874 nt of DNA from the NCBI RefSeq assembly GCF_003334355.1, contig NZ_QOWP01000100.1; one strand, given 5' to 3'. Positions 182 through 874 of the stretch are shown one piece after another. The first letter of the stretch is position 1, and the number at the start of each line of letters is the position of its first letter. The notes under the pieces were generated by a model. The model was not told the origin of the DNA. It did no database searches and worked only from the letters and a program-made list of their open reading frames with translations. This stretch comes from Escherichia coli (lineage in GTDB: Bacteria > Pseudomonadota > Gammaproteobacteria > Enterobacterales > Enterobacteriaceae). A program made the translations under genes and the position numbers.

Positions 182-874
182 AAGGTTAAGCCTCACGGTT
201 CATTAGTACCGGTTAGCTCAACGCATCGCTGCGCTTACACACCCGGCCTATCAACGTCGTCGTCTTCAACGTTCCTTCAGGACCCTTAAAGGGTCAGGGA
301 GAACTCATCTCGGGGCAAGTTTCGTGCTTAGATGCTTTCAGCACTTATCTCTTCCGCATTTAGCTACCGGGCAGTGCCATTGGCATGACAACCCGAACAC
401 CAGTGATGCGTCCACTCCGGTCCTCTCGTACTAGGAGCAGCCCCCCTCAGTTCTCCAGCGCCCACGGCAGATAGGGACCGAACTGTCTCACGACGTTCTA
501 AACCCAGCTCGCGTACCACTTTAAATGGCGAACAGCCATACCCTTGGGACCTACTTCAGCCCCAGGATGTGATGAGCCGACATCGAGGTGCCAAACACCG
601 CCGTCGATATGAACTCTTGGGCGGTATCAGCCTGTTATCCCCGGAGTACCTTTTATCCGTTGAGCGATGGCCCTTCCATTCAGAACCACCGGATCACTAT
701 GACCTGCTTTCGCACCTGCTCGCGCCGTCACGCTCGCAGTCAAGCTGGCTTATGCCATTGCACTAACCTCCTGATGTCCGACCAGGATTAGCCAACCTTC
801 GTGCTCCTCCGTTACTCTTTAGGAGGAGACCGCCCCAGTCAAACTACCCACCAGACACTGTCCGCAACCCGGAT
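182..874 (-). rRNA. rrl: 23S ribosomal RNA, partial: 3'-terminal ~693 nt covering the 3' part of domain V and domain VI, approximately E. coli nt 2212-2904; the gene continues beyond the right edge
   Basis: The reverse complement ends in ...GUGAGGCUUAACCUU, the canonical enterobacterial 23S 3' end, with the terminus at window 182. Hallmark motifs sit at the spacing expected under the mapping window = 3086 - E. coli position. These are the sarcin-ricin loop AGUACGAGAGGACCG (418..432, GAGA tetraloop at 424..427), the A-loop with G2553 (533), the peptidyl-transferase central loop GGAUAACAGG (631..640, A2451 at 635) and CCUCGAUGUCGG (577..588), and the P-loop UGGGGCG (831..837). Confidence 0.97.

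Follow-up and report, generated by a model that had tools for sequence, protein, structure and literature searches.

A 23S-5S rRNA segment identical to Escherichia coli K-12 and without known target-site resistance substitutions between 23S nt 2212 and 2904

Organization of the 23S-5S segment

The window, meaning the whole stretch of 874 nt that was analysed, presents the antisense strand of an rRNA region; its minus strand reads from the 3' end of a 23S rRNA gene through an internal transcribed spacer into a 5S rRNA gene, with the following features:

182..874, minus strand: 23S rRNA gene, 3' 693 nt (E. coli nt 2212-2904), comprising the 3' part of domain V and the whole of domain VI; the gene runs on past the right end of the window (RF02541 match and exact substring of the annotated K-12 23S genes from nt 2212)
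90..181, minus strand: 23S-5S internal transcribed spacer, 92 nt (NC_000913.3 feature coordinates and seven-copy alignment)
1..89, minus strand: 5S rRNA gene, nt 1-89 of 120, ended by the left edge of the window (RF00001 match, annotated rrf genes and alignment)

In an Rfam scan, positions 874..182 of the minus strand matched RF02541 (LSU_rRNA_bacteria) with 749.5 bits (E=1.7e-245) over model positions 2238-2925 of 2925, the match being incomplete at the RNA 5' end and displaying a posterior probability near 1 throughout. The covariance model combines sequence and secondary structure and has a curated gathering threshold of 50 bits, which the score exceeds, placing the segment within the bacterial LSU rRNA. 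Positions 87..1 of the same strand matched RF00001 (5S_rRNA) with 61.6 bits, incomplete at the 3' end, and for the two families the scores of the window lie far above the gathering thresholds. The 23S end at position 182, the spacer at 181-90 and the 5S gene starting at 89, all on one strand, reproduce the layout found in the seven operons of K-12 (7/7), and the 92-nt spacer is of the type common to K-12 rrnB, rrnG and rrnD.

Four mechanical open reading frames of at least 40 aa, located at 50-289 (+), 364-519 (-), 569-766 (+) and 588-791 (+), would be the basis for supposing that one of the strands encodes a protein of 51-79 aa. All four lie inside the rRNA genes or the spacer, a region fully explained by the rRNA models and by the annotation of thousands of genomes, and ORFs of such size are expected by chance. 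We give this reading, which consists of four chance-sized ORFs in an rRNA region, next to no probability, and it was set aside in favour of the rRNA assignment.

Comparison with the rrn copies of K-12

The seven rrl-rrf pairs of NC_000913.3 were aligned with the window. The rrnG copy of K-12 MG1655 (rrlG-rrfG, NC_000913.3 2726069-2729184) was identical to it at 874/874 positions, as was rrnD in the resequenced MG1655 record NZ_CP032667.1. Identity to rrlB, the copy used for conventional 23S numbering, extended over 23S nt 2212-2904 and the 92-nt spacer; the single difference from this operon was found in rrfB, at 5S nt 12 (window 78), where the window has C and rrfB has A. The C at this position is also displayed by rrfG, rrfD, rrfH and rrfC.

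Beginning at nt 2212 of its 2904-nt 23S gene, NZ_CP032667.1 contains the reverse complement of the window letter for letter. Accordingly, the numbering adopted in the sequence-only reading that preceded this work (window = 3086 - position) proved exact and free of indels. The same reading had recognised an antisense 23S rRNA gene, and the region is domain V/VI on the minus strand, in agreement with both the RF02541 match and the exact K-12 identity; and the alignment to K-12 rrlB that it had proposed as a check returned an identical 23S part over nt 2212-2904. Because of this identity, every position between 2212 and 2904 corresponds to the reference, including 2500, 2534, 2572 and 2609, which had not been listed. 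The reading had further recommended a comparison of all rrn copies, which was run here on the reference NC_000913.3 and revealed no inter-copy difference at any of the positions it had listed.

Within the span that the sequence-only reading had covered (window 418-640), the window is identical to rrlB, rrlG, rrlH, rrlA and rrlE of NC_000913.3, and only two copies of that genome vary: rrlC has G2525A, and the reference rrlD differs in three bases at 2547-2549. Beyond this span, two linked haplotypes occur at 2794/2796/2799/2802, and the copies show three further differences in the spacer and one in the 5S. Regarding the linked positions (window 284-292), the haplotype C,U,A,G is carried by the window, rrlB, rrlG and rrlD, and U,C,G,A by rrlH, rrlC, rrlA and rrlE. 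In predicted folds of this small domain VI hairpin, 2794 forms a pair with 2802, either C-G or U-A, so that the variation looks compensatory.

The difference in the reference MG1655 rrlD (NC_000913.3) consists of GAU for AUG at 23S 2547-2549 (window 537-539), on the 5' side of helix 92, which forms the stem of the A loop. With these bases the isolated helix 92 hairpin was predicted not to fold (0 vs -5.1 kcal/mol). The variant was found once each in 43 MG1655-type assemblies; neither NZ_CP032667.1 nor the window carries it. Either an error inherited with the reference or a genuine variant of particular stocks may account for it.

Assignment of the window to a single operon was considered and rejected: the window equals only rrnG in NC_000913.3, it also equals rrnD in another MG1655 assembly, and 100% matches occur in thousands of strains. 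A length of 874 nt without flanking genes is insufficient to assign the operon, the strain or the replicon; the 16S gene, the spacer tRNA(s) and the promoters P1/P2 upstream in an rrn operon fall outside it. Likewise, a decayed copy or pseudogene was ruled out by the 100% identity to functional reference operons.

Distribution of the sequence among bacterial genomes

When 5,426 complete E. coli genomes were searched by megablast with the whole window, 5,426/5,426 had a match, with a best match of at least 99% identity in 4,274 records. Many of these genomes, including K-12 MG1655, C600 and O157:H7, display 100% identity over the 874 nt, and the matching places in E. coli are annotated as "23S ribosomal RNA | rrf: 5S ribosomal RNA". 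Chance is of no concern for a match of this kind, in which thousands of E. coli genomes agree with all 874 nt at 100% identity. We therefore regard the window as almost certainly part of a normal, functional Escherichia coli (or Shigella) rrn operon, comprising a 23S end, a spacer and a 5S start, whose expression and function we infer from this identity; its sequence holds nothing that speaks against this view. To our knowledge, Shigella and E. coli are not distinguishable by the sequence of the window.

Among species representatives, the exact 100-nt stretch 23S 2569-2668 was found in few: E. coli, Citrobacter koseri, Klebsiella indica, '[Erwinia] mediterraneensis' and one Sphingosinicella contig. 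The 23S genes of C. koseri, K. indica and '[Erwinia] mediterraneensis' thus share this stretch with the window, and the corresponding loci of these Enterobacteriaceae are 92-99.6% identical over the parts of the window that they cover; Citrobacter koseri displays 96.1% identity over the full 874 nt. The exact 92-nt spacer had 0 matches in 100,044 species-representative genomes (one per species), apparently including the E. coli representative, so that this null result is uninformative on the species range, beyond showing that the spacer is carried by no representative of another species; it suggests that E. coli lineages differ in their spacer alleles, or that the stored representative misses rRNA regions.

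The Sphingosinicella sequence is a 548-bp contig (NZ_QDFY01000061.1) in the draft assembly of the alphaproteobacterium Sphingosinicella terrae KCTC 52780; 469 nt of it are enterobacterial 23S with 99.8% identity to the window, most likely a contamination of that assembly.

Contigs of this kind bear on where the window itself comes from, since it could be an E. coli rRNA fragment that is foreign to its supposed organism or replicon, such as a contaminating contig, an rRNA repeat collapsed in a draft or metagenome assembly, or a plasmid-borne or cloned rrn operon. Its 874 nt consist entirely of rRNA region, which is typical of short collapsed-repeat contigs, the S. terrae contig shows that such contaminants exist, and plasmids account for 45 of the 41,627 places matched in complete E. 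coli assemblies. Nevertheless, in complete E. coli genomes about 99.9% of these places lie on chromosomes, and the window is free of vector or foreign sequence, and we consider a foreign origin unlikely. Under it the sequence would be the same, but no inference on the ribosomes of the host could be drawn. It is highly improbable that this E. coli-identical rrn segment, instead of being a contaminant, is an rRNA operon gained by horizontal transfer and carried by a plasmid or a non-Escherichia genome; in such a case, the wild-type copy might coexist with divergent or resistant native copies. The 45 places on plasmid records may represent pieces of rRNA operons that plasmids carry, or replicons that were assigned wrongly.

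Functional elements of the 23S segment

Within an E. coli rrn operon, which we take as the origin of the window, the following elements were located on the 23S segment:

828..840, minus strand: helix 80 with the P loop, 23S 2246-2258, GACUGGGGCGGUC; G2251-G2253 at 835-833; in the window and outside 418-640
418..640, minus strand: 23S nt 2446-2668, the span covered by the sequence-only reading (mapping and 16 verified bases); within it lie three of the four central-loop strands of the peptidyl-transferase centre, helices 90-93, the A loop on helix 92, and the sarcin-ricin loop
580..639, minus strand: peptidyl-transferase-centre strands 2447-2506 with G2447, A2451, C2452, A2503, U2504, G2505 and U2506 (Rfam scan and script)
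525..539, minus strand: helix 92 with the A loop, 23S 2547-2561, AUGGCUGUUCGCCAU; G2553 at window 533 (base check)
475..510, minus strand: 23S 2576-2611 with G2576, U2585, A2602 and C2611 (base check; flank numbering consistent in 57-mers)
419..433, minus strand: sarcin-ricin loop, 23S 2653-2667, UAGUACGAGAGGACC; GAGA tetraloop G2659-A2662 at 427-424 (Rfam scan and base check)

The bases that the sequence-only reading had called wild type were compared with the reference by script, as 23S base and window letter:

minus strand, first group: G2447/c639, A2451/t635, C2452/g634, A2503/t583, U2504/a582, G2505/c581, U2506/a580
minus strand, second group: G2553/c533, G2576/c510, U2585/a501, A2602/t484, C2611/g475, G2659-A2662/427..424

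All 16 agreed with the reference (16/16). In the Rfam alignment, the peptidyl-transferase, A-loop and sarcin-ricin motifs of the window correspond to the upper-case consensus of RF02541; the strands 2447-2506, in particular, agree with the upper-case (highly conserved) consensus GGGGAUAACAGGCUGAU and CCUCGAUGUCGGCUC. The window departs from the model in domain VI only, in a lineage-typical manner, with a few non-standard pairs (marked 'v') near the 3' end, outside 418-640; no non-standard pair is marked within 418-640. The isolated helix 92 hairpin AUGGCUGUUCGCCAU was predicted to form a 5-bp stem with a 5-nt loop (-5.1 kcal/mol).

With these data, the earlier statement that the A loop and the sarcin-ricin loop are present with canonical bases is correct, as read directly and in agreement with the Rfam consensus, and so is the absence of resistance-associated substitutions at the visible positions, the window being identical to rrlB over 2212-2904. 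The statement that the peptidyl-transferase centre is present stands in part: three of the four central-loop strands are contained in the window, and the 2057-2063 strand lies outside it. The macrolide sites A2058 and A2059 had been placed beyond the window, and they indeed map to 1028 and 1027, past nt 874; G2032 and the positions 2057-2062 equally map to coordinates >874.

The rrn operon would be transcribed as one precursor and processed to mature 16S, 23S and 5S rRNA, and the 23S segment would then contribute the core of the active site in the 50S subunit. Domain V supplies the peptidyl-transferase centre through its central loop, which has A2451, U2506, U2585 and A2602 in its inner shell and positions the CCA ends of the tRNAs for peptide-bond formation. 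C75 of the tRNA in the A site pairs with G2553 of the A loop, and the CCA end in the P site pairs with G2251 and G2252 of the P loop (window 835-834). The translational GTPases EF-Tu and EF-G dock on the sarcin-ricin loop and are activated by it; alpha-sarcin and ricin attack this loop, at the G2661-A2662 bond and at A2660. Furthermore, the peptidyl-transferase pocket binds phenicols, oxazolidinones, pleuromutilins and lincosamides, and C2611, paired with G2057, borders the macrolide site. Drugs that occupy this pocket select for substitutions at the positions named in the sequence-only reading.

Resistance-associated positions in the window and in the E. coli population

The sequence-only reading had linked several of these positions to drug resistance, and the links are documented in the literature (PMC4030478, PMC7345174, PMC4916212). 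For linezolid, the substitutions G2576U, G2447U and U2504A have been described, with a dosage effect of the number of mutated copies, and resistance is also reached via mutations in L3/L4 and via cfr (PMC4030478). Tiamulin and/or chloramphenicol are associated with G2447A, A2451U, C2452U, U2500A and substitutions at U2504, and chloramphenicol with A2503G and G2505A, the positions concerned being 2447, 2451, 2452, 2500, 2503 and 2504 overall (PMC7345174). C2611G/A has been reported for macrolides (PMC4916212).

The frequency of six substitutions at six positions was surveyed in about 37,880 23S copies of the 5,426 complete E. coli genomes. The queries were 57-nt or 55-nt segments with the mutant base in the centre, a design in which only mutant copies reach 100% identity or are seeded at all. 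Among these ~37,880 copies, G2576U, U2504C, G2447U, A2503G and C2452U were each found in 0 copies, and C2611U in 1 copy of 1 genome (strain 1162C). With the six surveyed substitutions absent or near absent, the state without substitution displayed by the window is that of essentially every E. coli 23S gene.

The carrier of C2611U, E. coli 1162C (NZ_CP051659.1), was obtained from urine in Mexico City, and the substitution is located at position 3229 of locus L009, in 1/7 copies. The operon concerned is followed by tRNA-Asp, tRNA-Trp and hdfR (rrnC-type), and the partner base G2057 is unchanged, giving a G-U pair. Macrolide selection for a mutation of low dosage could explain this substitution, as could an assembly error.

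At the level of its sequence, the window copy is the drug-sensitive wild-type allele for nt 2212-2904. A susceptible phenotype is established neither by the wild-type base in one of about seven copies nor by DNA alone, and rRNA methylation (Cfr at A2503, Erm at A2058) or changes in L3/L4/L22 leave no trace in the DNA of the window. A genome with this wild-type copy might therefore be resistant by a route unseen in the window, namely other rrl copies, the positions A2058/A2059/G2032/2057-2062, Cfr/Erm methylation of A2503/A2058, or L3/L4/L22. Precedents for such routes are the dosage and heterozygosity of 23S mutations, the L3/L4 mutations and cfr known for linezolid (PMC4030478), as well as strain 1162C, with C2611U in only 1/7 copies. 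Nevertheless, the prior for this scenario is low, the six tested substitutions being absent or near absent in the 5,426 complete E. coli genomes, and we judge it very unlikely. Moreover, E. coli infections are not normally treated with these drugs, the outer membrane and the efflux pumps protecting the cell, and linezolid, pleuromutilins and most macrolides have little effect on the species; for this reason, these 23S sites have a small clinical weight in this species.

Significance

The feature described here is already known, as it is the E. coli reference sequence itself and nothing in it is novel. The absence of resistance substitutions is true but expected, and the wild-type result is close to tautological, since the window is the E. 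coli sequence that defines the numbering, identical to rrlB over 2212-2904. Given that the window equals the E. coli reference and that such substitutions almost never occur in E. coli genomes, no biological information is added by their absence. A clinical inference would take all the rrn copies, positions 2032-2062, and the repertoire of acquired genes and ribosomal proteins. The value of the finding is that of a sanity check, in which an antisense 23S rRNA gene was rightly recognised and numbered without error; for E. coli, it describes a 23S copy that carries no known target-site resistance substitution over nt 2212-2904.
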